Source of the DNA: Saprospirales bacterium
GTDB taxonomy: Bacteria; Bacteroidota; Bacteroidia; Chitinophagales; Saprospiraceae
Reading direction: 5' to 3'
NCBI GenBank assembly: GCA_002698985.1
Contig: PAAY01000027.1
Coordinates: 11,231 to 75,230, forward strand
Length of the DNA: 64,000 bases
Made by a program: the position numbers and the translations under genes
Notes under the pieces: generated by a model
Databases searched by the model: none
Told to the model about the DNA's origin: nothing
What the model saw: the letters and a program-made list of their open reading frames with translations, nothing else
Shown here: piece by piece, positions 5,669 through 47,362 of the stretch
How positions within the stretch are numbered: position 1 is the stretch's first letter
Layout of the letters: each line of letters begins with the position of its first letter

Positions 5669-5673
5669 AAATC

Positions 5674-9985: not shown

Positions 9986-10111
9986 CCGCCAACCACCAAC
10001 CAATTTGACCCTGCACTGACTTTTCTCATTGGCCCTCTTGGCCTGATTTCAGAACATTGCGGCTCATTTTCAGAACCATCTATCAAGTCCAAAACTCAAC
10101 AATAACCAACC

Positions 10112-13927: not shown

Positions 13928-13972
13928 GCCCACTGCCTACTGCCCACTGAACACTGCCCACTGAACACTGCC
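13928..13972. repeat. Short tandem repeat (TGCCCACTGAACAC-type) abutting the dnaE2-like start codon
   Basis: CCCACTGCCTACTGCCCACTGAACACTGCCCACTGAACACTGCC. The reverse-complement module (CAGTGTTCAGTGGGCAGT) occurs inside the gene at about 14815-14832. Confidence 0.85.
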
Positions 13973-13973
13973 T

Positions 13974-16900
13974 ATGCACCTGGCATCGCACACATATTAC
14001 AGCCTGCGCTACGGCACCCTGTCGCCCCGGCAGCTGGTGGAGGCGGCGCAGGCCCGCGGGGTGGAGACCCTGGCCCTCACCGATGTGAACAACACCTCGG
14101 CGGCGGGGGAATTCGTGCGGCTGTGCCGGGAGGCGGGCATCCGGCCCCTGCTGGGCATCGACTTCTTCCGCGACGGGCAGCGGCTCTACACCGGCCTGGC
14201 CCGCAACGCCGACGGCTTCTGCGCCCTCAACCGCTTCCTGTCGGTGCACTCCATCCAGGGGCGGCCCCTGCCCACCCTGGCCAGCGAGTGGGACTGGAAC
14301 CCCGCCGAGGTGGCCTTCATCTACCCCCGCCTGGTCAAGCCCATCGAGCGCTTTGCCGGGTACGAGTACCTGGGCGTGCGGCCCGAGCACGTACACCGGC
14401 TGTTCAGCTCGCCGGTGCGCCACCACCCCGACCGGCTCATCGCCTTCAGCCCCGTGACCTTCCTCGACGAGGAGGGCTGGGAACTGCACCGCCTGCTGCG
14501 GGCCATCGACCTGAACACCCTGCTGTCGAAACTCCAACCCACCGATCACGCCCCAAAGACCGAACTCTTCCACCCGCCGGCCGTGCTGCGGGATTTTTAC
14601 AAGCTCTACCCCCGCCTGCTCGAAAACGCCGGGCGCCTCGCCGAATCCTGCGAGATCGAGCTGGAAACGGGCCTGCACATCAACCGCCAAACCTTCACCG
14701 GCAGCCGAGAGGGCGACTACAAGCTGCTCGAAAAACTCACCCTCGAGGGATTCAAAAGGCGGTTTCCGGAGTGTTCAGTGGCCCCCGATACCGAAAGCTT
14801 TCGGTATCGGGGTCAGTGTTCAGTGGGCAGTAAGCAGTTGGCAGTTGGGCGTTCCGACGCGACCAGAAAGCCCCCTCATCCCTCCCCCGATGCCGATAGC
14901 TATCGGCACGGGGCATCCCCCTCCTCGAAGGGCCCCAGGGGGCTGACCAACCCTACACCCTCAACCCTCAACTCTAAACTCTCAACCCTACACCCTACAC
15001 CCTACACCCGCCTCCACCGCGAGCTCGAGGTGATCCGCGAGATGGACTTCTGCGCCTACTTCCTCATCACCTGGGACATCGTGCGCTATGCGCAGTCGGC
15101 GGGCTACCACCACGTGGGGCGGGGCAGCGGAGCGAACTCGCTGGTGGCCTACTGCCTGGGCATCACCGACGTGGACCCGCTGGAGCTGGACCTCTACTTC
15201 GAGCGCTTCATCAACCGCAACCGGCCCTCGCCGCCGGATTTCGACATCGACTTTTCCTGGGACGAGCGCGACGACGTGACCGACTACATCTTCAAGCGCT
15301 ACGGCTGGGAGTACACGGCCCTGCTGGCCACCTACAGCACCTTCCAGTTCAACGCCGCCGTGCGCGAGGTGGGCAAGGTTTTCGGTTTGCCGAAGGAAGA
15401 AATAGACAACTTTGCCGACGAACTGCTCCGCAAGATGGGCACCGAGGATGTGCGCTACTGGAAGCGCGAGCAGGGTGGCCGGCTGTTGCGCAGCGAAGAG
15501 GAACCCAACCGCCGCCACCTGCCCTCCGACATCCACGCGCAGGTGCTTCGCTTCGCAAAACGGCTGCACGGCTTCCCCAACCACCTGTCCATCCACGCCG
15601 GCGGGGTGCTCATCTCCGAGCGGCCCATCTTCTACCACACGGCCCTGCAGATGATGCCCAAGGGCTTCCCCATCACGCACTTCGACATGCACCACGCCGA
15701 AGACCTCGGCTTCCACAAGTTCGATGTGCTCAGCCAGCGCGGCCTGGGCCACATCAAAGACGCCGTGGACCTCATCAAACTCAACCAGGGCAAGGCCGTC
15801 GACATCCACGACGTGGCCGCCATCAAAAAGGACGAGCGGGTGCGGGCTCAACTGCGCAGCGGCCACTGCATCGGCTGCTTTTACATCGAAAGCCCGGCCA
15901 TGCGGGGCCTGCTCAAAAAGCTGCGCTGCGACACCTACCACCACCTGGTGGCGGCCAGCAGCATCATCCGCCCCGGCGTGGCGCAGTCTGGCATGATGAA
16001 GGAGTACATCCGCCGCTTCCACGCACCCAATTCTTTCGACTACCTGCACCCGGTGTTCAAAGAGCACCTGGGCGAGACCTTCGGCGTCATGGTCTATCAG
16101 GAGGACGTGATGAAGATCGTACACCACTTCGCCGGCCTGGGCCTCGACGAGAGCGACATGCTGCGGCGCCTCATGAGCGGCAAAAAGCGCCAGGGCGACC
16201 AGTTCGAGCTGCTCAAGCGCAAGTACTTCGACAACTGCCGCCGCCTGGGCCACCCCGATGCGCTGGCCAAAGAGGTGTGGCGCCAGATCGAGAGCTTTGC
16301 CGGCTACTCCTTCTGCAAGGCCCACTCGGCCAGCTACGCCGTGGAGAGCTTCCAGAGCCTGTACCTGAAGACCTACTACCCGCTGGAGTTCATGGTGGCC
16401 GTCATCAACAACTTCGGCGGTTTCTACCGCACGGAGTACTACTTCCACGAGGCCCGCATGGCCGGCGCCACCATCCACGCTCCCTGCGTCAACAACAGCC
16501 AGTACCTCACTTCGCTGCGCAACAAAGACATCTACGTGGGCTTCATCCACCTCAACGGCCTGGAGCGACAGACGGCGGCCAAAATCGTGCACCAGCGCAC
16601 GGTGGGTGGCCCCTTCCGCAGCCTGGCCGATTTCATCAGCCGGGTGGACATCGGCGCCAGCCAGCTGGAGCTGCTCATCCGCATCGGGGCCTTCCGCTTC
16701 ACGGGCCTCAGCAAGGGCGCCCTGCTCTGGGAGAAAAACGCCGTGTTCAATCCCCGCGAAAAGTTCGAGGCTTCGGGCCTGCTCTTCCCCGATCCGCACG
16801 AAAACTACGAGCTGCCTCCCCTGGAGGAGGGCCCCTACGACCAGGCTTTCGACGAAATAGAACTGCTGGGCTTCCCGCTCTGCTCGCCCTTCGAGCTGCT

Positions 16901-17231
16901 GGCCGATGCCTCCTGGGCCGCCGAGGGCATCACCGCCGCCGACCTGTCCCGCAGCCTGGGCCGATACGTCACCATGATCGGCTACTACGTCTGCCGCAAG
17001 GACGTGCGCACCGTCAAAAAGGAGCTGATGCACTTCGGCACCTGGCTCGACCGCGACGGCCATTTCTTCGACACGGTGCACTTCCCCAATTTCATCAAAA
17101 ACGCTCCCTTCCGCGGCCGCGGCATCTACCGCATCGAGGGCCGCGTGGTGGAGGAGTTCGGCTTCTGCTCACTGGAAGTGGTGAAGATGGAAAAACTGCC
17201 GTTCAGGAAAGATGAGCGGTATGGAGGATGA
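13974..17231 (+). CDS. DNA polymerase III alpha-subunit family protein, DnaE2/ImuC-like (error-prone type), with an in-frame repeat-derived insertion
   Basis: 1085 aa. N-terminal PHP domain (MHLASHTYYSLRYGTLSPRQLVEAAQARGVETLALTDVNN), then REMDFCAYFLITWDIVRYA, and polymerase core motifs (HAGGVLIS, FDVLSQRGL, FCKAHSASYA). Third codon positions are almost all G/C. The subtype call (DnaE2 rather than replicative DnaE) is inferred from the N-terminal sequence type and the length. Confidence 0.85.
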   Translation: MHLASHTYYSLRYGTLSPRQLVEAAQARGVETLALTDVNNTSAAGEFVRLCREAGIRPLLGIDFFRDGQRLYTGLARNADGFCALNRFLSVHSIQGRPLPTLASEWDWNPAEVAFIYPRLVKPIERFAGYEYLGVRPEHVHRLFSSPVRHHPDRLIAFSPVTFLDEEGWELHRLLRAIDLNTLLSKLQPTDHAPKTELFHPPAVLRDFYKLYPRLLENAGRLAESCEIELETGLHINRQTFTGSREGDYKLLEKLTLEGFKRRFPECSVAPDTESFRYRGQCSVGSKQLAVGRSDATRKPPHPSPDADSYRHGASPSSKGPRGLTNPTPSTLNSKLSTLHPTPYTRLHRELEVIREMDFCAYFLITWDIVRYAQSAGYHHVGRGSGANSLVAYCLGITDVDPLELDLYFERFINRNRPSPPDFDIDFSWDERDDVTDYIFKRYGWEYTALLATYSTFQFNAAVREVGKVFGLPKEEIDNFADELLRKMGTEDVRYWKREQGGRLLRSEEEPNRRHLPSDIHAQVLRFAKRLHGFPNHLSIHAGGVLISERPIFYHTALQMMPKGFPITHFDMHHAEDLGFHKFDVLSQRGLGHIKDAVDLIKLNQGKAVDIHDVAAIKKDERVRAQLRSGHCIGCFYIESPAMRGLLKKLRCDTYHHLVAASSIIRPGVAQSGMMKEYIRRFHAPNSFDYLHPVFKEHLGETFGVMVYQEDVMKIVHHFAGLGLDESDMLRRLMSGKKRQGDQFELLKRKYFDNCRRLGHPDALAKEVWRQIESFAGYSFCKAHSASYAVESFQSLYLKTYYPLEFMVAVINNFGGFYRTEYYFHEARMAGATIHAPCVNNSQYLTSLRNKDIYVGFIHLNGLERQTAAKIVHQRTVGGPFRSLADFISRVDIGASQLELLIRIGAFRFTGLSKGALLWEKNAVFNPREKFEASGLLFPDPHENYELPPLEEGPYDQAFDEIELLGFPLCSPFELLADASWAAEGITAADLSRSLGRYVTMIGYYVCRKDVRTVKKELMHFGTWLDRDGHFFDTVHFPNFIKNAPFRGRGIYRIEGRVVEEFGFCSLEVVKMEKLPFRKDERYGG
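14768..15008. repeat. Intergenic-type repeat modules embedded in frame within the polymerase gene
   Basis: Perfect 30-bp palindrome CCCCGATACCGAAAGCTTTCGGTATCGGGG at 14783-14812. ATGCCGATAGCTATCGGCAc at 14890-14909. CCTCATCCCTCCCC and (CTACACC)x3 at about 14985-15008. It encodes a low-complexity ~75-aa stretch (CSVAPDTESFRYRGQ...STLHPTPY). Confidence 0.85.
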
Positions 17232-17310
17232 AATAGGGATGAGGGATGAGGGATGAGGGATGAAGGCGCTAGCGCTCTCTACTCTCTACTCCCTACTCTC
17301 TACTCCCTAC
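17232..17310. repeat. Mosaic repeat locus filling the convergent gap between dnaE2-like and the FG-GAP gene
   Basis: (GGGATGA)x4, GGCGCTAGCGC, then (TCTCTAC/TCCCTAC)x5. The array supplies the stop codon and the last ~6 codons (RVGSRE) of the minus-strand gene. Confidence 0.9.
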
Positions 17311-19087: not shown

Positions 19088-19133
19088 AAAGGTTGAGAAA
19101 GGTTGAGAGGGGTTTAGAGGAGTTTAGAGGAGT
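19088..19133. repeat. Short tandem decamers (GGTTGAGARR x2, RGTTTAGAGG x2)
   Basis: Seen directly in the intergenic gap. The GTTTAG word is shared with other repeat modules. Confidence 0.8.
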
Positions 19134-23290: not shown

Positions 23291-23335
23291 CGTGACACGT
23301 GACACGTGACTCATTGAGTTGGCCTGGCGTCAGCA
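23291..23335. repeat. GTGACAC/GTGACTC heptamer module with an ATTGAGTTGGCCTG tail
   Basis: CGTGACACGTGACACGTGACTCATTGAGTTGGCCTG. A second copy at 25475-25522 is the target of the IS insertion. Confidence 0.85.
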
Positions 23336-23576: not shown

Positions 23577-23812
23577 GTGATGAAAAAGCTAGCGCTTCCA
23601 AACTCTACACCCTACACTCTCAACCCTACACTTTTCTAACCACAGAGTTATCAGAGTTGAAAACAGAGTATAGCAGAGTATTCCTGCTAAACCTTATAAT
23701 CCTCCATAATCCTCCATAATCCTCCATAATCCTCCATAATCCTCCATAATCCTCATAATCCTCATAATCCCACAACCGGCAACCGCCAACCGGTAACCGA
23801 AAACCCCTATCT
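23577..23812 (-). repeat. Mosaic repeat locus (core in minus orientation plus decamer, nonamer and heptamer arrays)
   Basis: GATGAAAAAGCTAGCGC, CTACACC-type units, then the core ...AACCACAGAGTTATCAGAGTTGAAAACAGAGTATAGCAGAGTATTCCTGCTAAACC. Arrays follow: (ATAATCCTCC)x5, (ATAATCCTC)x2 and (CAACCGN)x4. Confidence 0.9.
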
Positions 23813-23844: not shown

Positions 23845-25479
23845 ATGAAAGAACTTACCGGGAACATCATCGACCTGCACAAGCGGCGTATTTATTACGG
23901 GCGGGTGCAGTTTGCCGAAGGAAAAATAATTTCAATCACAGAAGAGGAGGGCAGGAGCGAGCGGTACATCCTGCCCGGCTTTGTGGATGCGCATGTCCAC
24001 GTCGAAAGCAGCATGCTCATTCCCTCCGAATTTGCCCGGCTGGCGGTGGTGCATGGCACCGTGGCCACGGTTTCCGATCCGCACGAAATTGCCAATGTGG
24101 TGGGGGTGCCGGGCGTGGAGTTCATGATTGAAAACGGGCGGCAGGTGCCGTTCAAGTTCAATTTCGGGGCGCCTTCCTGTGTGCCGGCCACGGCCTTTGA
24201 AACTGCGGGTGCCGTGCTGGACGTGGAGGCGGTGACGGCGCTGCTGAAAAAGCCGGAAATCCGCTACCTGTCGGAAATGATGAATTATCCCGGCGTGATA
24301 TTTCAGGATGCGCAGGTCTTGGCAAAACTGGCTGCGGCCAAAGCCTTGAACAAACCCATAGACGGGCATGCACCGGGGCTGAGGGGCGAAGACGCTCGAA
24401 AGTATTTTGCCGAAGGCATCAGTACTGACCACGAGTGCTTCACCTATGAAGAGGGGCGGGAAAAGGCGCAGCTCGGGGTGAAAATCCTGATCCGTGAGGG
24501 CAGTGCAGCCCGGAACTTCGAAGCCCTCATCCCGCTGTTAGAGGAGTTTCCGGAGCAGATCATGTTTTGTTCCGACGACAAACACCCCGACGACCTGATT
24601 CTTGGCCACATTAATCAGTTGGTGGCCCGGGCCCTGGCCAAAGGCTGCGACCTCATCAGCACCTTGCGAGCTGCCTGTGTGCATCCGGTGGAGCATTACA
24701 AGCTGCCCGTCGGCTTGTTGCGGGAGGGCGATCCGGCCGATTTCATCGTGACTTCCGACCTCGAAGACTTTCGAATCGATCAAACCTGGATCAACGGCGA
24801 ACTGGTGGCAGAAAACGGCCGAAGCCTGATTCAACAGGTGGCTTGCCAGCCCATCAATAATTTTCAGACGGAAAAGAAAAGCCCCGAAGATTTTCGCCTC
24901 ACTGCCTCCGGCAGCAACATGCGGGTTATCAAAGCCCTGGATGGGGAGCTGATCACGGAGGAGTTCATGGCTCCGGTGATTGCCCCGGATGGTTTTGCCG
25001 AAGGCGATGAAGAAAAAGATATTTTGAAATTCACCGTCGTCAACCGCTACCAGGATGTGCCACCGGCGATAGCCTTTATCAACGGCTTCAACATCAGGGG
25101 CGGGGCCATCGCCTCTTGTGTGGGGCACGACAGCCACAACATCCTGGCCGTGGGCAGCAACGATGAACTGCTCTGCCGGGCTGTCAACCTTATCGTCGAA
25201 AACAAGGGCGGCATCAGTGCAGTGGCTGCGGATGGAACCGAGATGGTGCTGCCGCTGCCCGTGGCCGGCATCATGACCACCGCCGACGGTTACGAAGTGG
25301 CGAAACTGTATTCCGAGATTGACAAATTTGTGAAAACCAAACTGGGCAGTACCTTGCGGGCGCCGTTTATGACCCTGTCGTTCATGGCGCTGCTGGTCAT
25401 CCCGCAACTGAAACTCAGTGACAAGGGCCTTTTTGATGGAAAGACTTTCCGATTTGTGGATTTGTTTGAAAAGCCGTGA
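23845..25479 (+). CDS. ade: Adenine deaminase
   Basis: 544 aa. Amidohydrolase metal motif [14 protein letters not shown] and a typical Ade C-terminal domain. The stop codon lies inside the first GTGAC heptamer of the downstream repeat. Confidence 0.9.
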
Positions 25480-25522
25480 CTCGTGACTCGTGACACGTAA
25501 CGCGTGACTCGTTGAGTTGGCC
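25475..25522. repeat. GTGACTC heptamer module, interrupted by the IS3-family element
   Basis: CGTGACTCGTGACTCGTGACACGTAACGCGTGACTCGTTGAGTTGGCC. The remainder (AAGTCACGTGAAAGG) continues after the IS at 26919. Confidence 0.85.
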
Positions 25523-25556
25523 TGAAATAAGTTGCCCAAAAAAAGCAACTTAAATC

Positions 25557-25976
25557 ATGGCAAAGATCAAAAAAAGCCAACTTGAGATTCGCAAAAGGCG
25601 TATCTTTAGTGAAGAGTTCAAGCGCCAGAAAGTCCAACAAATTGTTGAAAAAAAGCTCTCCATTGCTGAGGTATCTGAGCTCTATGGCGTTGCTCGCATG
25701 ACTGTTTACAGATGGCTCTATAAATTCTCTCCCCATCATAAAAAAGGGACAACCCAGGTGATTCAAATGGAAAGTGAAGAACACAAAACAAAGCAACTGC
25801 TGAAGAAGGTAGCAGAGTTGGAACAAGCCATTGGGCGCAAACAACTCCACATTGACTACCTGGAAAAACTCATTGCCATTTGCAGTGACGAGCTGAAAAT
25901 AGATCTTAAAAAAAATTTCGGTCAATCACACTCGAATGGTTCCGACAGCATCAAGACCAAACACCCTGGACAATGA
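25557..25976 (+). CDS. IS3-family transposase OrfA (HTH DNA-binding part)
   Basis: 139 aa with an HTH region (LSIAEVSELYGVARMTVYRWL) and a leucine-zipper-like helix. Confidence 0.85.
   Translation: MAKIKKSQLEIRKRRIFSEEFKRQKVQQIVEKKLSIAEVSELYGVARMTVYRWLYKFSPHHKKGTTQVIQMESEEHKTKQLLKKVAELEQAIGRKQLHIDYLEKLIAICSDELKIDLKKNFGQSHSNGSDSIKTKHPGQ
25908..25916 (+). other. Candidate -1 programmed ribosomal frameshift site (A8 run)
   Basis: CTT AAA AAA AAT in the OrfA frame. The -1 frame has a TAA at 25907-25909 and is open from 25910 onward, so only a slip within the A run can join OrfA to OrfB. Confidence 0.6.
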
Positions 25977-26893
25977 CAGCTCTTTATCGAACAGCCGGAA
26001 TCAGTAAACAGGCCCACTTGTCCTACATCAAAAGGCACCAGCAAAGGCAGTACAAATTCCTGATGCTCCAACTTCGACTGGACGATGAACGCAGCAAGCA
26101 TCCGGCTATGTCACTCAAGAAACTCTACAAGCGCATGTCCCCACAGTTTATTGGACGGGACTTGTTCATAGCGTATTGCCAGGAGCATGGCTATGAGACC
26201 ATATTGCCCCGTAAAACCCACTCTTCCAGACCTTTATCTGAAAAGGCACCTTACCCAAACCGTTGTGTGGATTTGGTGCTCATTGATATTAACCAGCTAT
26301 GGGTTAGCGACATTACCTATTTCAAAATTGGGAACGTGTTCTTTTACATCGTTCTGATCATGGATGTCTATTCCAGAAGAATTCTGGGCTATAATGCTAG
26401 TGCCAATATGTTCGCACAAGCCAATTTCAAGGCCCTTCAGATGGCACTCAAGCAAAGGAATATCGACCACTACAAAGACCGACTCATTCATCATTCAGAC
26501 AAAGGGAGCCAATACAAGAGTCTGCTATATGTAGAACATCTAAGAGATAAAGGCATCCTGGTCAGTATGGGGAATTGCTGTTTTGACAATGCACACATGG
26601 AGAGCCTTAACGGCATCTTGAAAAACGAGTACCTAAAGCACAGACCAATACACTCTGCACAAGACCTTGTAAAGTTTCTCAAACAAGATGTGCGCCTCTA
26701 TAACGAGGAACGCCCGCATGGCAGCCTAGGCAAAAGAACCCCTGTTGAATTTGAACGTTACATTTGTAACATACCTTTAGAAGAACGGACACGTTTGCCC
26801 ATTTTCGCCGACAAGGTTAAAGCAAACAAATTGTTGGTTTCTTCGACTGACCCTAAACAACTTAAAATCAATTTTCCAAATTTTATTCTGTAA
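25973..26893 (+). CDS. IS3-family transposase OrfB (DDE/rve integrase core), probably expressed as an OrfAB fusion by -1 frameshift
   Basis: DDE-type motifs LWVSDITYF, HHSDKGSQYKS and ESLNGILKNEY, then ...YNEERPHGSL. The frame is -1 relative to OrfA and is open from 25910. Confidence 0.88.
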   Translation: MTALYRTAGISKQAHLSYIKRHQQRQYKFLMLQLRLDDERSKHPAMSLKKLYKRMSPQFIGRDLFIAYCQEHGYETILPRKTHSSRPLSEKAPYPNRCVDLVLIDINQLWVSDITYFKIGNVFFYIVLIMDVYSRRILGYNASANMFAQANFKALQMALKQRNIDHYKDRLIHHSDKGSQYKSLLYVEHLRDKGILVSMGNCCFDNAHMESLNGILKNEYLKHRPIHSAQDLVKFLKQDVRLYNEERPHGSLGKRTPVEFERYICNIPLEERTRLPIFADKVKANKLLVSSTDPKQLKINFPNFIL

Positions 26894-26953
26894 CAACCTG
26901 GGCAACTTATTTCAGGCCAAGTCACGTGAAAGGACTGCTAAACTGCACAATAC

Positions 26954-27220
26954 AGGGATGAGGGGTGAGGGATGAGGGATGAAAAAGCTAGCGCCTCAAA
27001 ACTCTACACTCAAAACCCTACATCCTAAACTTTTTTAACCACAGAGTTAAGCAGAGTTGTTACACGGAGTTGCTCAGAGTTTTGACACGGAGTTTAACGG
27101 AGCTAGCGCCCCCAAACTCTACACCCTAAACCCTACACCCTAAACTCTTTAAAAAACAGAGTATCCCTGCTGAACCCCATAATCCCCATAATCCTCTATA
27201 ATCTTCTATAATCCTCTATA
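26954..27220 (-). repeat. Mosaic repeat locus, long double-GCTAGC variant, minus orientation
   Basis: (GGGATGA/GGGGTGA)x4, AAAAAGCTAGCGC, CTACAC-type units, the core with phased AACTCYG units, a second GCTAGC at about 27102, then CATAATCC/CTATAATC arrays ending 3 nt before the next ATG. Confidence 0.9.
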
Positions 27221-27223
27221 AAT

Positions 27224-27990: not shown

Positions 27991-28106
27991 GTTTAATTGT
28001 TTAAGCCTTCGGCGTTTAGCGGCTTCGCCGGTTTAGTCCGCCTGCTGGCGGAGTTTAGGCCTTTGGCGTTTAGCGGCTTCGCCGGTTTAGGCCTTTGGAC
28101 GTTTAT
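27991..28106. repeat. GTTTAR-punctuated array of 9-16-nt mini-hairpins
   Basis: GTTTAA GCCTTCGGC GTTTAG CGGCTTCGCCG GTTTAG TCCGCCTGCTGGCGGA GTTTAG GCCTTTGGC GTTTAG CGGCTTCGCCG GTTTAG GCCTTTGGAC GTTTAT. Starts directly after the stop codon. Confidence 0.85.
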
Positions 28107-28138
28107 TTGGGAATGATGGTCTTGACCAGGGTTTACAG

Positions 28139-28210
28139 CCTCATCCCTCATTCCTCATTCCTCATTCCTCATTCCTCATTCCTCATTCCTCATCCCTCAT
28201 TCCTCATCCC
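28139..28210. repeat. Heptamer array (CCTCATT/CCTCATC) x10
   Basis: Seen directly: ten head-to-tail heptamers between convergent genes. Confidence 0.95.
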
Positions 28211-28267
28211 TTCTTATTGCGTGCAGCTGTTGTTTGATGGGAGCCCTAATGAAGAGTAAATACCTGT

Positions 28268-29239: not shown

Positions 29240-29737
29240 GTGAAAAGAGTTCAGTTGCTTGTTTTGTCAGTTTTTATCGTCGCAATGGCGGGCTGCTATT
29301 CCTTCAAAGGCATCAGCATACCGCCTGATGTGAACACTTTTTATGTATCGCTTTTCGAAGACCAAAGCCAGGCTTCCATCCCCACCTTGCCACGGGATTT
29401 TACCGAACAACTGAAAGACAAAATCCGGCGTGAAACCCGCCTCAGCTACAACGATGAGGAACCGGACATTGAATTTCACGGTGCCATCACCGGCTTCCGG
29501 GTGCAGGCCGAAGCTCCAAAGGCCGATCAGCAAATCGGTTTCAACAAGCTCACCGTCACCGTGCGGGTGGAGTTCATCAACAACAAAAACGAAAAGGCCA
29601 ACTGGAAACAGCAGTTCAGCTACGATGAATTCTTCGAACCCGACCAGAACCTCCTCGACGTGCAGGACCAACTCCTCGAAACCATCAACAAAGAACTCAT
29701 CGACCAGATCTTCAACCGGGCATTTACGAATTGGTAG
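29240..29737 (+). CDS. Lipoprotein, LptE-like
   Basis: GTG start. Signal peptide plus lipobox (VAMAGC). Size and pattern (CYSFKGISIPPDVNTFYV) resemble Bacteroidota LptE-family proteins. The family call is tentative. Confidence 0.55.
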   Translation: MKRVQLLVLSVFIVAMAGCYSFKGISIPPDVNTFYVSLFEDQSQASIPTLPRDFTEQLKDKIRRETRLSYNDEEPDIEFHGAITGFRVQAEAPKADQQIGFNKLTVTVRVEFINNKNEKANWKQQFSYDEFFEPDQNLLDVQDQLLETINKELIDQIFNRAFTNW

Positions 29738-29740
29738 TTG

Positions 29741-30212
29741 ATTGGGGATTATGGTGTTGTAAGTTGTAGGTTGTAAGTTGTAAGTTGACGCAGGAACACT
29801 CCGTTTAACTCTGTTTTTAACGCTTATAACTCTGTGGTTAATTGAGGATTATGGAGGATTATGAAGGATTATGCGGTTCAGCAGGAACACTCTGTTCAAC
29901 TCTGTTTTCAACTCCGATAACTCTGTGGTTTAAAAAGTTTAGGGTGTAGGGTTTGGGGGCTCTAGCTCCGTTAAACTCCGTGTCAAAACTCTGTGCAACT
30001 CTGTGAAATAACTCTGCTCAACTCTGCGGTTAAAAAAGTTTAGAGTGTAGGGTTTAGGTTGTAGAGTTTGGGAGCGCTAGCTTTTTCATCCCTCATCCCT
30101 CATCCCTCATCCCTCATCTCTCATCCCTCATCCCTGATTATGGGGATTATAGGGATTATGGGGTTCAGCAGAACTTGCTACGAGCTACGAGCTACGAGCT
30201 ACGAGCTACGCC
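29741..30212 (+). repeat. Largest mosaic repeat locus, ~470 bp, plus orientation
   Basis: GTTGTAR heptamers (about 29755-29790), two core copies, (GGATTATNNN) units, GCTCTAGC at about 29959 and GCGCTAGC at about 30074, phased AACTCYG units at 29973-30029, (TCATCCC)x7 at about 30087-30136 and (CTACGAG)x4.5 at 30178-30210. Confidence 0.92.
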
Positions 30213-30276
30213 TCACGCTTTCCTAAAAATCAAATTCCCTACATTTGGCCGTCATTTCACAAAAACCACTTTGCGC

Positions 30277-31578
30277 ATGGACTTTTTGATCACCCTTGTA
30301 CGGGCATTGTTTGGACTGGCGGTCATGATCGCTTTCCTGTATGCACTCAGTTACGACCGCAAATCCATCAACTGGCGGCTGGTGGGAGCCGGGCTGCTGT
30401 TGCAACTCGTCTTGGGGGTGCTGGTGCTGAAAGTGGACATGATTACACACATTTTTGATGGGATCGCTCACTTTTTTGTGAAGGTGCTGGACTTTACCCA
30501 TGCGGGTACTGACTTCCTGCTCACCCCTTTTGGCGCAGCCGAAGTGGACACGGCCCTGAACAATTTTGTTTTCAAAATTTTGCCGACCATCGTGTTCTTT
30601 TCGGCGGTTTCTTCCATGCTCTATTATTTCGGAATACTGCAATTGATCACCAAAGGCATTGCCTGGGTGATGAGCAAAACCATGAAGCTGACCGGAGCTG
30701 AGAGCCTGGCCGCCGCCGCCAATGTTTTCATCGGACAAACAGAGGCGCCGCTGGTCATCAGGCCCTACCTGGAGGGCATGTCCCGCTCGGAGATCATGTG
30801 CCTGATGACGGGGGGCTTTGCCACCATAGCGGGCAGTGTGTTTGCGGCCTACGTTGGCTTCCTCGGGGGTGATGACCCGGCGGAGCAGCAGCTTTTTGCC
30901 CGACACCTGCTCAATGCCTCCATCATGTCGGCACCGGCGGCCATTGTGGCTGCCAAGATCCTGTACCCCTTGAAAGGGGAAATTCCATTGGAAGCTCAAA
31001 AACTGGATGTTCCTAAAGAAAAATCCGGCAACAACGTGCTGGATGCCATCACCCGTGGCTCTACCGATGGCTTCCGGCTGGCGGTGAACGTGGGCATCAT
31101 GCTGCTGGTGTTCACGGCTTTCATCAGCATGATCAATTACGGACTGGAGCACGGCTTCGGCGATTGGTTCGGCTGGAACGAGGCCATTGCAAAAAGCACG
31201 GACGGACGCTTTTCCGGTTTCACCATCGAGTATGTGCTGGGGGTTGTGTTTGCACCGGTGGCCTGGCTGTTGGGTGTGCCCTGGGAGGACTGTACGGTGG
31301 TGGGGCAGTTGCTCGGCATGAAAACGGCCATCAATGAATTTTACGCTTATGCCCAGATACCGTCCGTTGCACCGGTTCTGCAGGAAAAGTCAATTCTGAT
31401 AGCCACCTATGCCTTGTGCGGCTTTGCCAACTTTGCTTCCATCGGCATTCAGATCGGTGGTATCAGTGCGCTGGCACCGGGCCAACGCCAAAACCTGACG
31501 GAGCTGAGCTTCAAGGCCATGATCGGTGGTACCATTGCGGCATTCTTCACGGCCATTTTTGCAAGCCTTCTCGTTTAG
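30277..31578 (+). CDS. NupC/NupG-family concentrative nucleoside transporter
   Basis: ORF trimmed to MDFLITLVRALFGLAVMIAF. Conserved CNT motifs (AAANVFIGQTEAPL, GGFATIAGSV, LCGFANFASIGI). Confidence 0.9.
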   Translation: MDFLITLVRALFGLAVMIAFLYALSYDRKSINWRLVGAGLLLQLVLGVLVLKVDMITHIFDGIAHFFVKVLDFTHAGTDFLLTPFGAAEVDTALNNFVFKILPTIVFFSAVSSMLYYFGILQLITKGIAWVMSKTMKLTGAESLAAAANVFIGQTEAPLVIRPYLEGMSRSEIMCLMTGGFATIAGSVFAAYVGFLGGDDPAEQQLFARHLLNASIMSAPAAIVAAKILYPLKGEIPLEAQKLDVPKEKSGNNVLDAITRGSTDGFRLAVNVGIMLLVFTAFISMINYGLEHGFGDWFGWNEAIAKSTDGRFSGFTIEYVLGVVFAPVAWLLGVPWEDCTVVGQLLGMKTAINEFYAYAQIPSVAPVLQEKSILIATYALCGFANFASIGIQIGGISALAPGQRQNLTELSFKAMIGGTIAAFFTAIFASLLV

Positions 31579-39991: not shown

Positions 39992-41092
39992 TTGCACTTA
40001 GAAAAGCTCATACTCACCCATTTCCGCAATTACGAATTTCAATCCCTGGAATTTGCGCCCAGGCTCAACCTGGTGGTAGGCCTCAACGGCATGGGCAAAA
40101 CCAACCTGCTGGATGCGGTTTATTACCTGTGCATGGGCAAAAGCCAGTTCAGTGGCAATGACCGAAATGTGCGTCAGAAAGGTGCTGACTTTTTTCGCCT
40201 GGAGGGATATTTTCAAAATAACGGCGGCCAGCAAAAAGTGGTGGCCAAAGTGATTCCGGGACAGCTCAAGCAACTTGAACTGGACGACAAAGCCTACGAC
40301 AAACTGAGCGACCATGTGGGACATTTCCCGGTGGTGTTCAAAGCCCCTGACGATACCGCACTGGCGCTGGAAGGCAGCGAGGAACGGCGGCGCTTTGTTG
40401 ACAATACCCTGTGCCAGTTGGACAATCGCTACCTGGCCGAACTTATGGAGTACAACCGCCTGCTGCAAAGGCGCAACGCCGCCCTCAAACAAATGGCCGA
40501 GCAACACCGCTGGGACCCGACCCTGCTCCAGGTTTACGACGAAAAAATGAAAGTGCCGGCAGAGTACATCCTCCAACGGCGCACGTCTTTTGTGCAGGAT
40601 TTCGAACCGGTGTTCAACCGGCAGTTTACAGTGATCAGCGGAGGCAAAGAGCAGGTGCACATCAAATTCAAATCTCAGCTTCAGGATACGGGATTCAAGA
40701 GCCTGATGGAGGCCAACCGTGAAAAAGATCGCATTCTGCAACGGACCACCGGCGGCATTCACAAAGACGACCTGGGCTTCCAACTCAATGACATGCCCCT
40801 GAAGCGATTCGCTTCGCAAGGGCAACTCAAATCTTTCGTGCTGGCACTGAAGCTGGCGCAATACGAATTGCTGAAACAACAAAAACAATTCAAACCCATC
40901 CTCCTGCTGGATGACCTCTTCGACAAACTGGACGACGAGCGGGTGAACCATCTCATCCGCCTGCTCGTAGAAGGGGATTTCGGGCAGGTCTTCATCACCG
41001 ATACCCACCCCGAAAAAGCAGAGGCCATTGCCCGCAACTTCGGTGGTGAATACCGCAAATTTGTGGTTGAGGCGGGAACGGTGGCGGTGTGA
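39992..41092 (+). CDS. recF: DNA replication and repair protein RecF
   Basis: Walker A GLNGMGKTNLLDA and signature/Walker B region LLLDDLFDKLD. Start placed at the TTG at 39992 (HLEKLILTHFRNY), because the ATG at 39932 would lie inside the upstream terminator hairpin. The start remains uncertain. Confidence 0.85.
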   Translation: MHLEKLILTHFRNYEFQSLEFAPRLNLVVGLNGMGKTNLLDAVYYLCMGKSQFSGNDRNVRQKGADFFRLEGYFQNNGGQQKVVAKVIPGQLKQLELDDKAYDKLSDHVGHFPVVFKAPDDTALALEGSEERRRFVDNTLCQLDNRYLAELMEYNRLLQRRNAALKQMAEQHRWDPTLLQVYDEKMKVPAEYILQRRTSFVQDFEPVFNRQFTVISGGKEQVHIKFKSQLQDTGFKSLMEANREKDRILQRTTGGIHKDDLGFQLNDMPLKRFASQGQLKSFVLALKLAQYELLKQQKQFKPILLLDDLFDKLDDERVNHLIRLLVEGDFGQVFITDTHPEKAEAIARNFGGEYRKFVVEAGTVAV

Positions 41093-41132
41093 TCCGCCGG
41101 CTGGCGGATGAGGAACTGAGGATTTGAGGAAC
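41092..41132. repeat. Hairpin plus GAGGAACT-type octamer module
   Basis: ATCCGCC-GGCT-GGCGGAT overlaps the recF stop. GAGGAACTGAGGATTTGAGGAAC follows; it is the reverse complement of the octamers at about 43990-44030. Confidence 0.75.
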
Positions 41133-43851: not shown

Positions 43852-44062
43852 TTTGTTATGATTATGAGGATTATGGAGGATTATATGGATTATGGAGGAT
43901 TATATGGATTATGGAGGTTGTTGTCGGTTGTCGGTTCCTTAATTTCTGAGCCCCTCATGCCGATAGCTATCGGCATCGGTATCGGGGCTCAGTTCCTCAG
44001 TTCCTCGGTTCCTCAAATCTTCAAATCTTCAAATCTTCAGTTCTTCAGTTCTTCAATTCCTC
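43852..44062 (+). repeat. Mosaic repeat locus, left member of an inverted pair
   Basis: (GGATTATNNN)-type units, (GTTGTCG)x2, a unique stretch GTTCCTTAATTTCTGAGCCCCTC, the perfect 20-bp palindrome ATGCCGATAGCTATCGGCAT at 43957-43976, then octamer arrays (AGTTCCTC, AAATCTTC, AGTTCTTC). Confidence 0.9.
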
Positions 44063-44621
44063 ATTCCTCCAACACCAATCTAATGTTCCAGTTCACGCTT
44101 TGGCCGGTTCTTTCTTCGAAGGTCTTCCAATCGCCGTCGGTGCTGAGGAAGAGCCAGTCGCCGTCGTTTTTGCGGGGGCCGGCATCGCAGCCGATGGACT
44201 GTTGTTCGGCCGGGTGCTGCACCTGAACGGATACCCAAAGGTCTTCATCACCGATGGTGAGGTCAGGGCCGATGGTATGGGTATTCCATGCAGGGGTGTT
44301 CAGGTCATTGGTGACAGTGGCCTGGTACAGGCTGGAGCCGGGTTGGGTGGCCGTGCCCTGGCCGTAAATCCGCACCTTGCAGTCTGCCGGGTTGTTGCCG
44401 GCAAAAAAGCTGACGGCCTGAATTCGTTTGCCCTTGTGGGCAGCCAGATCAGCAGCGGGGAATCTCACAGCCAGTTCGTGAATGCCGGGTGCCAGCAAGG
44501 GTCCCGAAAAATTATCGCCGTCGTAATGCAGCACATTGTTTCCGGTGGGGGCGGGGCTTTCGTCTTTTTGGCAGGAAAGGGTCAGGGTCAGCATTGCAAT
44601 TGCGAAGAAAAAATACTTCAT
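44061..44621 (-). CDS. Lipoprotein, function unknown
   Basis: MKYFFFAIAMLTLTLSC lipobox. 186 aa, beta-rich. Confidence 0.6.
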   Translation of the reverse strand: MKYFFFAIAMLTLTLSCQKDESPAPTGNNVLHYDGDNFSGPLLAPGIHELAVRFPAADLAAHKGKRIQAVSFFAGNNPADCKVRIYGQGTATQPGSSLYQATVTNDLNTPAWNTHTIGPDLTIGDEDLWVSVQVQHPAEQQSIGCDAGPRKNDGDWLFLSTDGDWKTFEERTGQSVNWNIRLVLEE

Positions 44622-44769: not shown

Positions 44770-47184
44770 ATGAAGTTCATTTTTACCTTTTTTACCGCCA
44801 CCTTATTTGTTCTCACTTCGGCCTTCGGCCAACTGACCAGCCTGAGCAAACCCGTCAACAACAGTCCGCTGACCATAACCCAGTTCATGCAGGGCGAGCG
44901 CTTCGTCGGCTTCCTGCCGGAAGACATCCGCTGGTCTTTGGACAGCAAGACCATCTACTTCTCCTGGAACCCCGATGGCGACACATTGCGCAGCGATTAC
45001 AAAATCAGCCTTGACGACAAGGGCAGGGCAGGGGAGCCCCTGAAAGTGGAGCTGGAAGAGCTGAGAACATTGCCCGAAACGGGCGACTACAACAAGGCGC
45101 GCAATGCCCTGCTGTACGATAAAAATGGCGACATCTTTCTGGCTACCCTTTCGGCCTCCGGCCAATGGGAAAGCAGGCAACTGACCAATACCCTGGACCG
45201 GGAAGGAAATCCCCGTTTCAGTGGTGACGAGCAGCAGGTCATTTTCCAGAACGGCGACAACCTGTTCAGTTGGGACCTCAACAGCCACGAACTGAGCCAG
45301 TTAACGGACTTCCGTTCCGGAAAAGAGCGGGGAGAGCGCCCATCTCCGCCACATGAGGCCTGGCTGGAAACTGAAAATATGGAACTGTTCGAGGTGTTGG
45401 CGGAACGCAAACAAAAAGGCGAACTCAGAAGAGAACGCCGCAAGGCCCTCGCGCCTGACAGACCTCTCACCTGGCGATACGGTGATGCCAACATCGGCAA
45501 CCTGCAGGTAACGCCTGATCTTCATTTTGTCACCTTCCGGCTTTACCACGATAGCGACGGAAAAGGCACCGAAGTGCCCAACTATGTGACCGAATCCGGT
45601 CAGGTGGAAATGCTCCGCTCCCGTGAGAAGGTGGGCAGTCCGCAAGGCTGGACGGAACTGGGCATTTACGACCGCCAGCGCGATACGGTGTACCTGGTGG
45701 AGGTGGAGCAGATCGAGGGCATTTACGACAAGCCGGAATTCTTGCGGGAATACCACAAGGATACCACGGAGTACAATCCCAAATACGACAAGCCCCGCAA
45801 GGTGATCTTCAACGGCCCGGTGTTTTCGGAAGACGGGAAAGCCGTGGTGGTCATTCGCAGCCTGGACAACAAAGACCGCTGGATCATGCTTCTAAACCTG
45901 GAAAACGGAAAACTGGAGTTGATCGACCGGCAACGGGACGAAGCCTGGGTGGGCGGCCCCGGCATCAGCGGCTGGAATTTTTCCACCGGAACCCTGGGCT
46001 GGCTGCCGGATAACAAAACCCTTTATTTTCAATCGGAAGAGAGCGGCTTTTCGCACCTGTACCTCTACAATGTTGAGACGAAAAAGAAAAAGCAGTTGAC
46101 CTCCGGCAATTTTGAAATTCTGGATGTGCAGCTTTCCAACGACGGCAAGCTGTTTTACCTGCGCTCCAACCGGGAGAGCCCTTTTGAGCAGCACCTTTAC
46201 AGCCTGCCCGTTGCCGGAGGCGAAATGAAAAAAATTACTTCCCTTCCGGGAAATCACGAGACCTACCTCTCACCCGATGAGCGCTGGATCGCGGTTCGAT
46301 ACTCCTACAGCAACAAGCCCTGGGAGCTGTACCTGATGCCCAATGAAGCCGGAGCGAAAGCTGTTCAACTGACCCGCTCCACCACCAAAGATTTTGAAGC
46401 CTACCCCTGGCGGGAACCTGAGCTGGTGTGGTTCGAGGCCGCCGACGGGGTGAAGGTGCCGGCCCGGCTCTACCGCCCGGAAGCCCCTAAGCGCAACGGT
46501 GCCGCCGTGGTCTTTGTGCATGGCGCCGGCTATCTTCAGAACGTGCACCGCTGGTGGAGCAGTTATTACCGGGAGTACATGTTCCACAACTTCCTGGCGG
46601 ACAACGGCTACACGGTGCTGGACATCGACTACCGGGCCAGCAGCGGCTACGGCCGTGACTGGCGCACCGCCATCTACCGGTACATGGGCGGCAAAGACCT
46701 CTCCGACCAGGTGGATGGCGCCCGCTACCTGGTGGCAGAGCACGGCATCGATGCCGACAGGATTGGAATTTACGGGGGCAGCTACGGCGGCTTCATCACC
46801 CTCATGGCGCAGTTCACGGCACCGGGTGTTTTCAAAAGCGGCGCTGCGCTTCGTTCCGTAACGGACTGGGCGCATTACAACCACGGCTACACCTCCAACA
46901 TCCTCAACACCCCGGTGGAAGACAGCATTGCCTACCGGCGCTCCTCTCCCATTTATTTTGCCGAAGGGCTGAAAGGACACCTGCTCATCCTGCACGGCAT
47001 GGTGGATGTGAACGTGCAGTTTCAGGATGTGGTACGCCTTTCGCAAAGGCTCATCGAACTCGGCAAAGACAACTGGGAAATGGCCGTCTTCCCCATGGAA
47101 GACCACGGCTTCATAGAGCCCAGCAGCTGGGCCGATGAGTACAAACGGATTTACCGGCTGTTTGATAAAACGCTGAGGAAGTGA
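44770..47184 (+). CDS. S9-family serine peptidase (prolyl oligopeptidase / dipeptidyl peptidase type)
   Basis: ORF trimmed to MKFIFTFFTATLFVLTSAFGQ. N-terminal beta-propeller region. C-terminal alpha/beta hydrolase with GGSYGG nucleophile elbow and terminal D/H region (HGMVDVNV, EDHGF). Confidence 0.88.
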   Translation: MKFIFTFFTATLFVLTSAFGQLTSLSKPVNNSPLTITQFMQGERFVGFLPEDIRWSLDSKTIYFSWNPDGDTLRSDYKISLDDKGRAGEPLKVELEELRTLPETGDYNKARNALLYDKNGDIFLATLSASGQWESRQLTNTLDREGNPRFSGDEQQVIFQNGDNLFSWDLNSHELSQLTDFRSGKERGERPSPPHEAWLETENMELFEVLAERKQKGELRRERRKALAPDRPLTWRYGDANIGNLQVTPDLHFVTFRLYHDSDGKGTEVPNYVTESGQVEMLRSREKVGSPQGWTELGIYDRQRDTVYLVEVEQIEGIYDKPEFLREYHKDTTEYNPKYDKPRKVIFNGPVFSEDGKAVVVIRSLDNKDRWIMLLNLENGKLELIDRQRDEAWVGGPGISGWNFSTGTLGWLPDNKTLYFQSEESGFSHLYLYNVETKKKKQLTSGNFEILDVQLSNDGKLFYLRSNRESPFEQHLYSLPVAGGEMKKITSLPGNHETYLSPDERWIAVRYSYSNKPWELYLMPNEAGAKAVQLTRSTTKDFEAYPWREPELVWFEAADGVKVPARLYRPEAPKRNGAAVVFVHGAGYLQNVHRWWSSYYREYMFHNFLADNGYTVLDIDYRASSGYGRDWRTAIYRYMGGKDLSDQVDGARYLVAEHGIDADRIGIYGGSYGGFITLMAQFTAPGVFKSGAALRSVTDWAHYNHGYTSNILNTPVEDSIAYRRSSPIYFAEGLKGHLLILHGMVDVNVQFQDVVRLSQRLIELGKDNWEMAVFPMEDHGFIEPSSWADEYKRIYRLFDKTLRK

Positions 47185-47362
47185 GCCCCGAAGCCGATGC
47201 CGATAGCTATCGGCATGAGGGACTCAGGAATTAAGGAACCGACAACCGACAACAACCTCCATAACCCATATAATCCATATAATCCATATAATCCATATAA
47301 TCCTCCATAATCCTCCATAATCCTCCATAATCCCCATAATCCATATAACCCCACAACAACAC
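47185..47362 (-). repeat. Mosaic repeat locus, right member of the inverted pair
   Basis: Reverse complement of 43856-43992. Palindrome ATGCCGATAGCTATCGGCAT at 47197-47216, then TTAAGGAACCGACAACCGACAACAACCTCC and CATATAATC / CATAATCCTC arrays. Begins at the S9 peptidase stop codon. Confidence 0.9.

Follow-up and report, generated by a model that had tools for sequence, protein, structure and literature searches.

Introduction

Heptamer-rich intergenic DNA has, to our knowledge, been known for decades from heterocystous cyanobacteria, Xanthomonas, and Beggiatoaceae, and neither its origin nor its function is agreed upon. The short tandemly repeated repetitive (STRR) heptamers of cyanobacteria were reportedly described by Mazel and colleagues in 1990; STRR units include CCCCAGT, TTGGTCA, and CAACAGT, and their hosts are heterocystous cyanobacteria. 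The small dispersed repeats (SDR) of Nostocaceae are said to be ~21–27 nt long, to lie within other repeats, and to be present in some related genomes and missing from others. In the bacterial interspersed mosaic elements (BIMEs) of enterobacteria, extragenic imperfect palindromes lie among conserved linker motifs in a stereotyped order, and the REP-associated tyrosine transposases (RAYTs), which are Y1 transposases (PF01797), are typically flanked by repetitive extragenic palindromic (REP) sequences, imperfect palindromes of 20–40 nt that occur in many copies. Rickettsia palindromic elements are repeats that have inserted in frame into protein-coding genes. Here, we compare these systems with a family of short tandem repeats and palindromes that occupies the intergenic spacers of a 64,000-nt stretch of DNA (hereafter, the window) from a marine population of Saprospiraceae; the block between lptE and nupC (positions 29741–30212) is the focal locus.

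Heptamer repeats have been studied in Xanthomonas and Nostoc, and the GGGAATC repeats of Xanthomonas vary in length and sequence between close relatives while their position is kept (PMC4692102). Heptamer-rich genomes also appear among the "long simple sequence repeat (SSR)" genomes of Mrazek (2007), as summarised in PMC4679880 and PMC4692102. The TAACTGA repeats of Beggiatoaceae, Cyanobacteria, and a few Bacteroidetes consist of a single heptamer with a strong bias toward positions upstream of start codons and toward the forward orientation (PMC4679880). Other relevant systems are the SDR of Nostocaceae (Elhai et al. 2008, Genome Res 18:1484, as cited in PMC3116915 and PMC5861425), REP/BIME mosaics together with REPINs (inverted REP doublets at fixed spacing, with a conserved head tetranucleotide) mobilised by RAYT transposases (PMC3116915), and the tandem repeats of Borgs, which lie in frame within genes (PMC9879509).

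With moderate confidence, we regard the repeats described here as a lineage-specific mosaic family of an uncultured marine Saprospiraceae clade, made up of fast-evolving and largely neutral or selfish spacer DNA. The family has a definite anatomy, exceeds chance expectation, is polymorphic between strains, persists at the same positions while its sequence turns over, and is restricted to one clade.

Results

Occurrence of the repeat family in the window

We ran Tandem Repeats Finder (TRF) on the window and separately mapped words of 14 letters (k = 14) that recur more than 300 bp apart. TRF reported arrays of period 7–10 at each locus named in an earlier note on this DNA; there are dozens of such arrays, with a maximum of 10.4 copies. 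The k = 14 map contained little beyond blocks of the repeat family (62–381, 5540–5669, 13938–13970, 14814–14908, 17235–17264, 23579–23769, 26899–27221, 28150–28211, 29826–30210, 43860–43979, and 47194–47348). The one other large block, at 11078–11827, is a coding tandem of six 126-bp units (91% identity) inside an NB-ARC/TPR gene; it is a TPR repeat unrelated to the intergenic family. Compared with dinucleotide shuffles, the window held an excess of the core 30-mer (four matches vs. 0.00 expected), of the connector GCGGTTYAGCAG with at most one mismatch (6 vs. 0.57), and of the hub GCGCTAGC (7 vs. 1.03). The earlier note had proposed modules at all of these loci and a vocabulary common to them, forming a single modular family. 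Both proposals are confirmed by the arrays, the map, and the shuffles, since units, hub, connector, core, and palindromes recur above chance. The three palindromes that it had listed, one of them with two copies and another with three (one imperfect), were each found in the numbers given.

Its density estimate of ~5% of the window was somewhat high, as the loci total 2,643 bp, or 4.1%. Based on gene calls, the family accounts for ~30% of the 7,920 intergenic bases and occupies 13 of the 33 spacers of at least 30 bp, plus one site within a gene; a strict tandem mask covers 9.7% of intergenic vs. 0.17% of coding bases. Divergent, convergent, and tandem spacers are all occupied and both orientations are about equally frequent, so that no orientation or spacer-type preference was seen among the family blocks of the window. 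As had also been claimed, there are arrays that begin at stop codons or reach start codons (e.g., at 17232, 13972, 27221, 43852, and 47185). The neighbouring genes are ordinary Bacteroidota housekeeping genes, and a C-terminal sorting domain of type IX secretion (T9SS) was also found. Gene content and NupC relatives identify the host as a member of the Saprospiraceae, in keeping with the Bacteroidota origin suggested previously.

Module vocabulary and order

The family comprises at least ten kinds of 7–12-nt tandem repeat, and all of its parts are runs of short units. Module letters are defined in the orientation of the focal locus:

Module A: (GTTGTAG)n
Module B: GCTAGC hub, mostly GCGCTAGC
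Module C: (TCATYCC)n
Module D: (GGATTATNN)n
Module E: GGTTYAGCAG connector
Module F: AACTCYG units at 9–12-nt spacing
Module G: (GTTTAGG/GTGTAGG)n
Module H: (GCTACGA)n
Module I: (GTCACGN)n
Module K: (CCCACTGAACACTG)n
Module Q: (GGTTGYC)n
Module O: (AGTTCYTC)n octamers

The core, ~90–115 bp long, consists of F units (AACTCYG-type 10–12-mers), an A-rich turn, and G heptamers (GTKTAGG), followed by B; of its two subtypes, one follows E and the other follows B. The full order is (GTTGTAG)n-GCTAGC-(TCATYCC)n-(GGATTATNN)n-GGTTYAGCAG-core-GCTAGC-(TCATYCC)n-(GGATTATNN)n-GGTTYAGCAG-(GCTACGA)n, or A-B-C-D-E-core-B-C-D-E-H. Locus 1–380 reads AAAAA B CCC DDD E FF GG B C..C E HHH, and the focal locus reads D AAAA FF DDD E FFF GG (B') FFFFF GG A B CCCCCC DD E HHHH; 23588–23785 and 26851–27215 have the same module order on the opposite strand. 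A second composite type, represented by an inverted pair at 43852 and 47185, combines D, A/Q, a 70-nt unique linker, the ATGCCGATAGCTATCGGCAT palindrome, and octamers. The modules had been described as shuffled in both order and orientation. Orientation does vary, as do completeness and copy number, but the module strings show that order is largely conserved: C-D-E-(core-B / H) is kept across loci, and the grammar is conserved across loci, strains, and species.

Palindromes of 16–57 nt lie in spacers at 244–263, 352–367, 5535–5556, 5642–5657, 43957–43976, and 47197–47216, and two more (14783–14812 and 14891–14908) lie inside a DnaE-family polymerase gene. Altogether, the palindromes of the repeats belong to a CCCCG...CGGGG family (CCGAT/CCGAA units), a GCCTGTC...GACAGGC family, and a family of 9-nt UUCG/GAAG mini-hairpins. 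Palindromes sit singly within arrays, and each family is found in just one type of array, in a single register; those in C arrays interrupt the array at TCATCCCT^CATCCC in four of four cases (window ~226 and ~14876, the second strain L102, and the metagenome contig L081). Neither REPIN-type inverted doublets nor a conserved GTAG-like head tetranucleotide was evident at the palindromes of the window.

The focal lptE-nupC spacer

The focal block fills the spacer between lptE and nupC and carries a partial core and one core of each type:

29285–29737: lptE
29741–30212, forward strand: focal composite element, sense; starts 4 nt past the stop codon of lptE and stops ~28 nt short of the promoter box of nupC
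29756–29787, forward strand: A module (GTTGTAR) x4.6 (TRF)
29788–29841, forward strand: partial core with AACTCYG-type 10–12-mers only, three mismatches to the core 30-mer (nhmmer 29790–29841, E = 7e-11)
29844–29873, forward strand: D module (GAGGATTATG) x3 (TRF)
29873–29884, forward strand: E connector GCGGTTCAGCAG (connector search)
29885–29966, forward strand: core type 1, with three AACTCYG units 9–12 nt apart, A-rich turn, GTTTAGG/GTGTAGG, and hub variant GCTCTAGC
29967–30081, forward strand: core type 2, with five AACTCYGTG-type units and G heptamers, and terminal GCGCTAGC at 30074–30081
30086–30135, forward strand: C module (TCATCCC) x7.1 (TRF)
30136–30163, forward strand: D module (GATTATGGG) x3.1 (TRF)
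30160–30171, forward strand: E connector variant GGGGTTCAGCAG (connector search)
30177–30210, forward strand: H module (GCTACGA) x4.9 (TRF)
30240–30247, forward strand: TACATTTG box outside the element, likely the Bacteroidetes-type -7 promoter of nupC
30277–31578: nupC, a NupC-type nucleoside transporter gene

The TACATTTG box matches TAnnTTTG, the Bacteroidetes -7 promoter consensus, and the box together with the 64 nt preceding the nupC ATG is kept in two other species. At guaA, a promoter-type box (TATATTTG, 413–420) likewise lies downstream of the repeat block.

Turnover between strains, species, and paralogous blocks

Array lengths, whose comparison the earlier note had proposed, differ between strains. 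In a second strain (L102, GCA_054681935.1), whose genes are ~97.5% identical to those of the window strain, the spacer upstream of guaA has eight GTTGTAG units rather than five. Its first C array contains a 33-nt palindrome-bearing insert that is not in the window strain, its D array contains a 30-nt insert holding an 18-nt palindrome, and an unbroken (TCATTCC)7(TCATCCC)2 array takes the place of the 57-nt nested palindrome of the window strain; the 21-nt segment bearing CCCCGAGTACTCGGGG is missing. Another spacer differs between these two strains by a clean 21-nt hairpin-bearing indel and by a block replacement at the GCTAGC hub. A third strain (L117, GCA_003694615.1), ~96% identical, has about four fewer CCTCATT units at the 27991–28211 locus, and one assembly lacks the 54-bp higher-order unit of that locus, possibly owing to assembly collapse.

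The sister species (L001) is a Saprospiraceae metagenome-assembled genome (MAG) whose NupC is 98% identical in amino acids and whose genes are ~84% identical in nucleotides. Its lptE-nupC spacer begins with GGATTAT units and continues with GGTTGTC arrays, CCCCG...CGGGG palindromes in arrays, the core, and GTGTAGG heptamers, and terminates in a different array (CACGCGT/CACGTGT). Both flanking genes align to the window by BLAST, yet the spacer does not align at all; the alignment resumes exactly at the promoter region, at position 30213, directly after the end of the focal block. Downstream of recF, the two species have GAGGAACT-type octamers in common, but their palindromes differ.

Paralogous blocks within the genome are ~90% identical over 140–178 nt without gaps and are often inverted and 1–3 kb apart; the inverted paralogues 26954–27131 and 29937–30114, for example, are 90.4% identical over 178 nt. 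At ~90% identity, the paralogous blocks are older than the strain split, whereas arrays are still changing in length and palindromes are still being gained and lost. Three inverted pairs, 0.8–3.3 kb apart (26954–27131/29937–30114, ~43860–44000/~47173–47312, and 13928–13972/14768–14850), each flank one to three genes or a gene segment. Such pairs could promote inversions or reflect local template-switch duplication.

Distribution

By exact-protein look-up, the window matches a 144-kb contig from a marine metagenome assembly (ena:ERZ27288367:k119_1311333), and identical contigs occur in several Tara Oceans samples. Family blocks are present in four more spacers in the 9.6 kb upstream of the window (L099). 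On a low-coverage contig (L091, 1980–2881), a block is joined to a cation-diffusion-type transporter gene foreign to the window, indicating at least one further block copy elsewhere in the genome; similarly, in L117:1894–2139 the lptE spacer runs into the region upstream of rmuC. These joins are probably chimeric assemblies through shared repeats, or possibly real rearrangements.

Scanning one genome per GTDB species for NupC yielded 80 loci, mostly from Saprospiraceae, among which only L001 carries the vocabulary. When a profile of the core was searched with nhmmer over 130 loci (1.65 Mb), it matched only the window population with its upstream 10 kb, L102, L001, and L081, an otherwise unrelated metagenome contig that bears the family core. 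The profile had no match in L002–L080, L111, L113, L114, or L129, and ~80 other Saprospiraceae and Bacteroidota loci (~1.3 Mb) lack the family. L113 is syntenic with the window from the polymerase gene to nupC, and its spacers are short and free of arrays. The repeat family is, therefore, limited to a narrow clade.

The exact core 30-mer had no match in one genome per GTDB species, so either this set lacks the source species or the sequence is variable. A core 21-mer had four matches in JGI metagenomes, one of them a true member (L081); the other three were rejected as chance or coding matches. Copies of an insertion sequence (IS) of the IS3 family were considered as a handle on other genome regions and abandoned, as the element occupies just one site, whichever assembly is considered. 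That the family is pervasive is shown only for ~74 kb of a single contig, for one additional locus, and in related genomes, and not for a whole genome.

The repeat block inside the DnaE-family polymerase gene

The open reading frame (ORF) at 13974–17231 encodes a DnaE-family polymerase with PHP, PolIII-alpha, finger, and HHH domains, and passes only a superfamily-level NCBIfam cut-off. It contains the one family block found within a gene:

14768–15008, forward strand: in-frame repeat block consisting of an inverted K array, a 30-nt palindrome, C units with a palindrome, and inverted G heptamers

The block is located between the PHP and palm domains and keeps the frame. Typical Saprospiraceae DnaE-family homologues are ~980 amino acids long with a six-residue linker at this point, and the closest relatives carry unrelated inserts of ~15–70 residues there. 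A variant of the window protein (P0121) is encoded in a different Saprospiraceae genome (L129, GCA_900174565.1), and beyond the insert the two share 99.5% identity. The P0121 insert consists of arrays alone, (CAGTGGG-type) x16 and (CCCTCAT) x17, read as seven-residue repeats (21 nt encoding 7 amino acids), where the window strain has two palindromes and the inverted G array instead. Both alleles are in frame. That two such different alleles are intact argues that only frame-preserving variants survive in this insert, with the proviso that only predicted full-length proteins could be retrieved for the comparison and frameshifted alleles would escape it.

The polymerase gene is a GC-rich island (0.63–0.66 vs. 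~0.52). At the DNA level, it shares 95% identity with the copy at L129:10001–13300, whereas the neighbouring genes of L129 are only 70–77% identical to those of the window, which suggests that the gene was recently transferred. Upstream of the polymerase gene in L129 (7858–9774), there is a different repeat family with an 88-bp hairpin-rich unit in up to 4.8 copies at 97% identity. A more distant relative (L114) carries perfect heptamer arrays of CAGTAGG, AAGACTG, and TCATCAA at 6358–6382, 9969–9995, and 10307–10340, one of them inside its DnaE-family gene, so heptamer proliferation with different vocabularies may recur in this group.

Tests for function, RNA structure, and known families

In the sense RNA of the core, F units (AACUCUG) can pair with G units (UAGAGUU), including G.U pairs. 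Owing to these G.U pairs, the sense strand was predicted by RNAfold to fold at -21.7 to -30 kcal/mol vs. -8.3 to -20.8 kcal/mol for the antisense strand. The sense-strand z-scores of three core copies were -0.26, -3.02, and -0.95, of which one is significant, and the seven aligned core copies showed no compensatory changes. With such mixed z-scores and no compensatory pairs, a structured-RNA reading of the core was not supported. A general propensity to form G-quadruplexes (G4) was rejected, with five motifs in the window vs. 3.5 in shuffles; four of the five lie within arrays. A functional role may exist, but neither these results nor the even orientations lend it positive support.

Rfam gave no match at or above the gathering score in the window (for the focal locus, one chance-level match at E = 0.73), and the window contains no tRNA. 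The full-text literature yielded nothing on such repeats in Saprospiraceae or on a composite heptamer architecture, in line with the earlier note, which knew of no description. Tandem units of STRR1-3, TAACTGA, GGGAATC, or GGGGATT were absent from the window and the 9.6 kb upstream. The earlier note had also called for a search for RAYT or IS200/IS605-type enzymes. Neither the window ORFs scanned with Pfam nor the gene calls of the upstream 10 kb include a RAYT, IS200-type, or PF01797 Y1 transposase, and in ~84 kb the only transposase is that of one IS3 element; the link to REP/RAYT is, therefore, one of analogy and not of membership. By inspection, the ends of composite blocks are formed by different arrays and have no terminal inverted repeats (TIRs) or target-site duplications (TSDs).

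Other loci of the window

The remaining loci range from single arrays to composite elements:

1–380, forward strand: composite element upstream of guaA, sense; A5 B C3 D3 E core B C (57-nt nested palindrome) C E H3 (16-nt palindrome) H
5535–5668, forward strand: partial element with palindrome, D3, E-like motif, and H array with CCCCGAGTACTCGGGG insert
13928–13972, forward strand: K module (GCCCACTGAACACT) x3.2, stopping 1 nt short of the DnaE-family start codon
17232–17310, reverse strand: C x4, GCGCTAGCGC hub, and CTCTCTA array, filling a convergent spacer and providing the stop codon of an FG-GAP gene
19088–19133, forward strand: GGTTGAGAGG-like 10-nt array (TRF)
23291–23335, reverse strand: I module (GTCACGT) array with GGCCAACTCA leader, upstream of rmuC (start at 23219, gene calls)
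23577–23812, reverse strand: composite of Q, D x8, E, core, and B, antisense on the forward strand and sense with rmuC
25475–25522, forward strand: (CGTGACT) array adjoining the left end of the IS3 element
26922–27221, reverse strand: composite D3 E short-core B core-2 B C4, ending 2 nt before the enoyl-CoA hydratase start codon
27991–28211, forward strand: GTTTAG units alternating with 9–16-nt UUCG-type mini-hairpins, then (CCTCATT) x10.4
41092–41132, forward strand: palindrome TCCGCCGGCTGGCGGA with an array of (GAGGAACT)-type octamers, located at the stop codon of recF
43852–44069, forward strand: second composite type with D5, A/Q, 70-nt linker, ATGCCGATAGCTATCGGCAT palindrome, and octamer arrays
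47185–47362, reverse strand: inverted paralogue of the 43852 element, 91–93% identical

The K array at 13928–13972 is also present in L129. The IS3-family element spans 25516–26921, with 23-nt TIRs at 25516–25538 and 26899–26921, orfA at 25557–25976, and orfB at 25973–26893. It sits within a repeat block beside GTCACG arrays, and its site is identical in all assemblies. In the sister species, a solo copy of its terminal 16-mer (L001:1371–1386) lies beside the same kind of GTCACG array. At 27179–27223, a (ATAATCCTCT)n array reaches to within 2 nt of the enoyl-CoA hydratase start codon and generates several TATAAT hexamers. In the syntenic relative L113, the enoyl-CoA hydratase gene follows only 84 bp after the adenine deaminase gene; the IS and the repeats may, therefore, have altered how this gene is transcribed.

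Between guaA and the next gene (2017–2172), a 45-bp unit occurs in 3.4 copies with two hairpins per copy (GCACAGCCTTCAGGCTGTGC and ATCGACCTTCAGGTCGAT), and may be a related hairpin-array module. On the reverse strand, a giant ORF at 52064–64000 continues past the end of the window; on the source contig it encodes 4,594 amino acids with Laminin_G_3, SdrD_B, and PA14 domains.

Discussion

Origin and maintenance of the family

If the family is largely neutral or selfish spacer DNA, three processes would account for its behaviour. First, array units would be gained and lost by slipped-strand mispairing or unequal recombination. Second, the palindrome-bearing segments of 21–33 nt would be gained and lost as discrete units at fixed registers within arrays, through hairpin-mediated insertion and deletion. 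Third, recombination, template switching, or some transposition activity would copy whole blocks of ~100–200 bp into other spacers, with many of the copies lying close by and in inverted orientation. The family would persist where DNA is unconstrained, namely, between a stop codon and the next promoter, in convergent spacers, and in one tolerant protein loop, and would have no function of its own. Several points weigh against this account. Slippage alone does not predict a conserved module order or a fixed palindrome register, both of which hint at a specific activity or constraint. Persistence at the same spacers across a species split could mean that the family has a function, and sense AACUCUG/UAGAGUU pairing reaches z = -3.0 in one core copy. 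Furthermore, no enzyme or direct mechanism was observed, and some of the strain differences come from short-read assemblies, in which repeats collapse or mis-join, so that those of L088, L091, and L117 may be partly artefactual.

The blocks and palindromes might instead be non-autonomous mobile elements of the miniature inverted-repeat transposable element (MITE), REPIN, or SDR kind, copied by a transposase encoded elsewhere in the genome. Candidates would be a RAYT or IS200/IS605-type Y1 enzyme acting on hairpins, or an IS3-family enzyme, with slippage responsible only for later changes in the arrays. This is the main alternative, although we consider it fairly unlikely. The ~90% identity of dispersed paralogues over 140–178 nt extends through a unique linker, and palindrome-bearing segments are cleanly present or absent between strains; a palindrome family confined to a fixed register of one array type also recalls the target-specific, duplication-free insertion of IS200/IS605 and REP elements, and both the IS3 element inside a block and the solo terminal 16-mer beside the same GTCACG array in L001 point the same way. 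However, inspection of the composite blocks revealed no TIRs or TSDs, no Y1 transposase is encoded in the ~84 kb, and the sole IS3 element is at the same site in every assembly. The palindromes are flanked by array units that slippage could delete without any enzyme, and the occupation of orthologous spacers in two species fits inheritance with in-place turnover better than repeated insertion.

It is unlikely, in our view, that the blocks are functional cis elements, whether protein-binding platforms, terminators or insulators, or G4-forming or structured RNA, whose copy number tunes the expression of neighbouring genes as in phase variation. Such a role would explain why the same spacers of two species retain the family, why blocks stop just upstream of the conserved TAnnTTTG boxes of nupC and guaA, and why one array abuts a start codon. 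The better folding of the sense strand, with one copy at z = -3.0, and the location of four of five G4 motifs in arrays are also consistent with it, yet two of the three sense z-scores are not significant, the seven cores lack compensatory changes, and G4 motifs are not enriched (5 vs. 3.5). Nor is it easily reconciled with the lack of preference for orientation or spacer type, with an orthologous spacer that cannot be aligned between two species, with the array-free spacers of the syntenic L113, or with the same units being tolerated within a coding region.

A dedicated enzymatic system that writes ordered mosaics in spacers, and in frame in the polymerase gene, is conceivable because of the fixed module order, the array-specific palindrome register, and the restriction to a narrow clade. 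Whether in the form of a hairpin-recognising single-strand transposase or of a templated repeat-adding activity, we judge it quite unlikely. If it existed, bacteria would possess a repeat-generating system of a new kind, as opposed to passive slippage, and its mosaics might double as a cis-acting code, such as insulators or binding platforms.

We can practically dismiss the idea that the repeats stem from faulty assembly, be it as an artefact or through misassembly of a low-complexity region: short-read contigs do commonly break or mis-join at these blocks, and many short contigs stop within them, but the same sequence was recovered in many independent ENA, NCBI, and Logan assemblies, separate assemblies of several Tara Oceans and other samples give the same full spacers with both flanking genes, and related yet different versions occur in other strains and another species. 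The repeat blocks are real sequence.

Returning to a fast-evolving and largely neutral family, the clade offers a rich and tractable case, with ~30% of spacer DNA in repeats, an explicit grammar, palindrome turnover between strains that are 96–97.5% identical, complete spacer turnover in a sister species, and an in-frame polymerase copy as a built-in readout of selection. The population is abundant in Tara Oceans data, so existing reads could serve for direct measurements of slippage rates, of insertion sites, and of any mobilising gene. In practical terms, short-read MAG assemblies of marine Saprospiraceae break up and are wrongly joined at these blocks.

Comparison with known repeat systems

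As in STRR and long-SSR genomes, the tandem heptamers of the Saprospiraceae family are mostly intergenic and of many kinds per genome, their position is kept while length and sequence vary, and polymerase slippage is the proposed driver. They fit the long-SSR class in having head-to-tail units of 5–11 nt beyond chance, with non-triplet units confined to non-coding DNA (9.7% vs. 0.17%) and the coding site in frame. Unlike STRR, the host is a member of the Bacteroidota, the unit sequences are unrelated (no tandem STRR copies in the window and the 9.6 kb upstream), and arrays are chained in a fixed order with a non-heptamer core, hub, and connector, an arrangement that, as far as we know, has not been described for STRR. 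The TAACTGA repeats are likewise intergenic heptamer arrays of filamentous or gliding lineages including Bacteroidetes, and some of the arrays described here also lie directly beside start codons, but the present family draws on many kinds of unit, shows no bias in orientation, and is composite in architecture.

The palindromes resemble SDR in being very small, hairpin-capable nested elements, seen here as indels of 21, 21, 30, and 33 nt between strains that are ~97.5% identical. Compared with SDR by description, they differ in host and probably in sequence and are tied to one array type and register, and their mobility is suggested solely by presence or absence between strains. Extragenic palindromes in an ordered mosaic of linker motifs, a high density in spacers, and service as an IS insertion target (the IS3 element in a block here) are features in common with REP/BIME sequences. 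On the other side, a search of the ~84 kb found no RAYT, inverted doublets or a GTAG-like head are not evident, and the family consists mostly of tandem SSRs rather than palindromic units. It is distinguished from MITEs, short non-coding IS derivatives flanked by TIRs and TSDs, by composite block ends that lack TIRs and TSDs, the only trace of that kind being the solo IS3 end-like 16-mer in L001, and from clustered regularly interspaced short palindromic repeat (CRISPR) arrays, in which identical repeats of 25–40 nt alternate regularly with unique spacers of similar length, by contiguous 7–12-mer units with no unique spacers. Like Rickettsia palindromic elements and Borg repeats, it can form in-frame inserts that give extra, probably disordered, and fast-evolving loops, although in this case at a single site, in the DnaE-family gene, and with the same vocabulary as the intergenic family.

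The earlier suggestion that the family combines STRR with REP/BIME holds insofar as the heptamers behave like STRR and the palindromes, set in a stereotyped mosaic, resemble REP/BIME, and fails with respect to the units, which are unrelated to STRR1-3; a RAYT was not found in the ~84 kb. By analogy, the family appears to work in the manner of both STRR/SDR repeats and BIME mosaics while belonging to neither.

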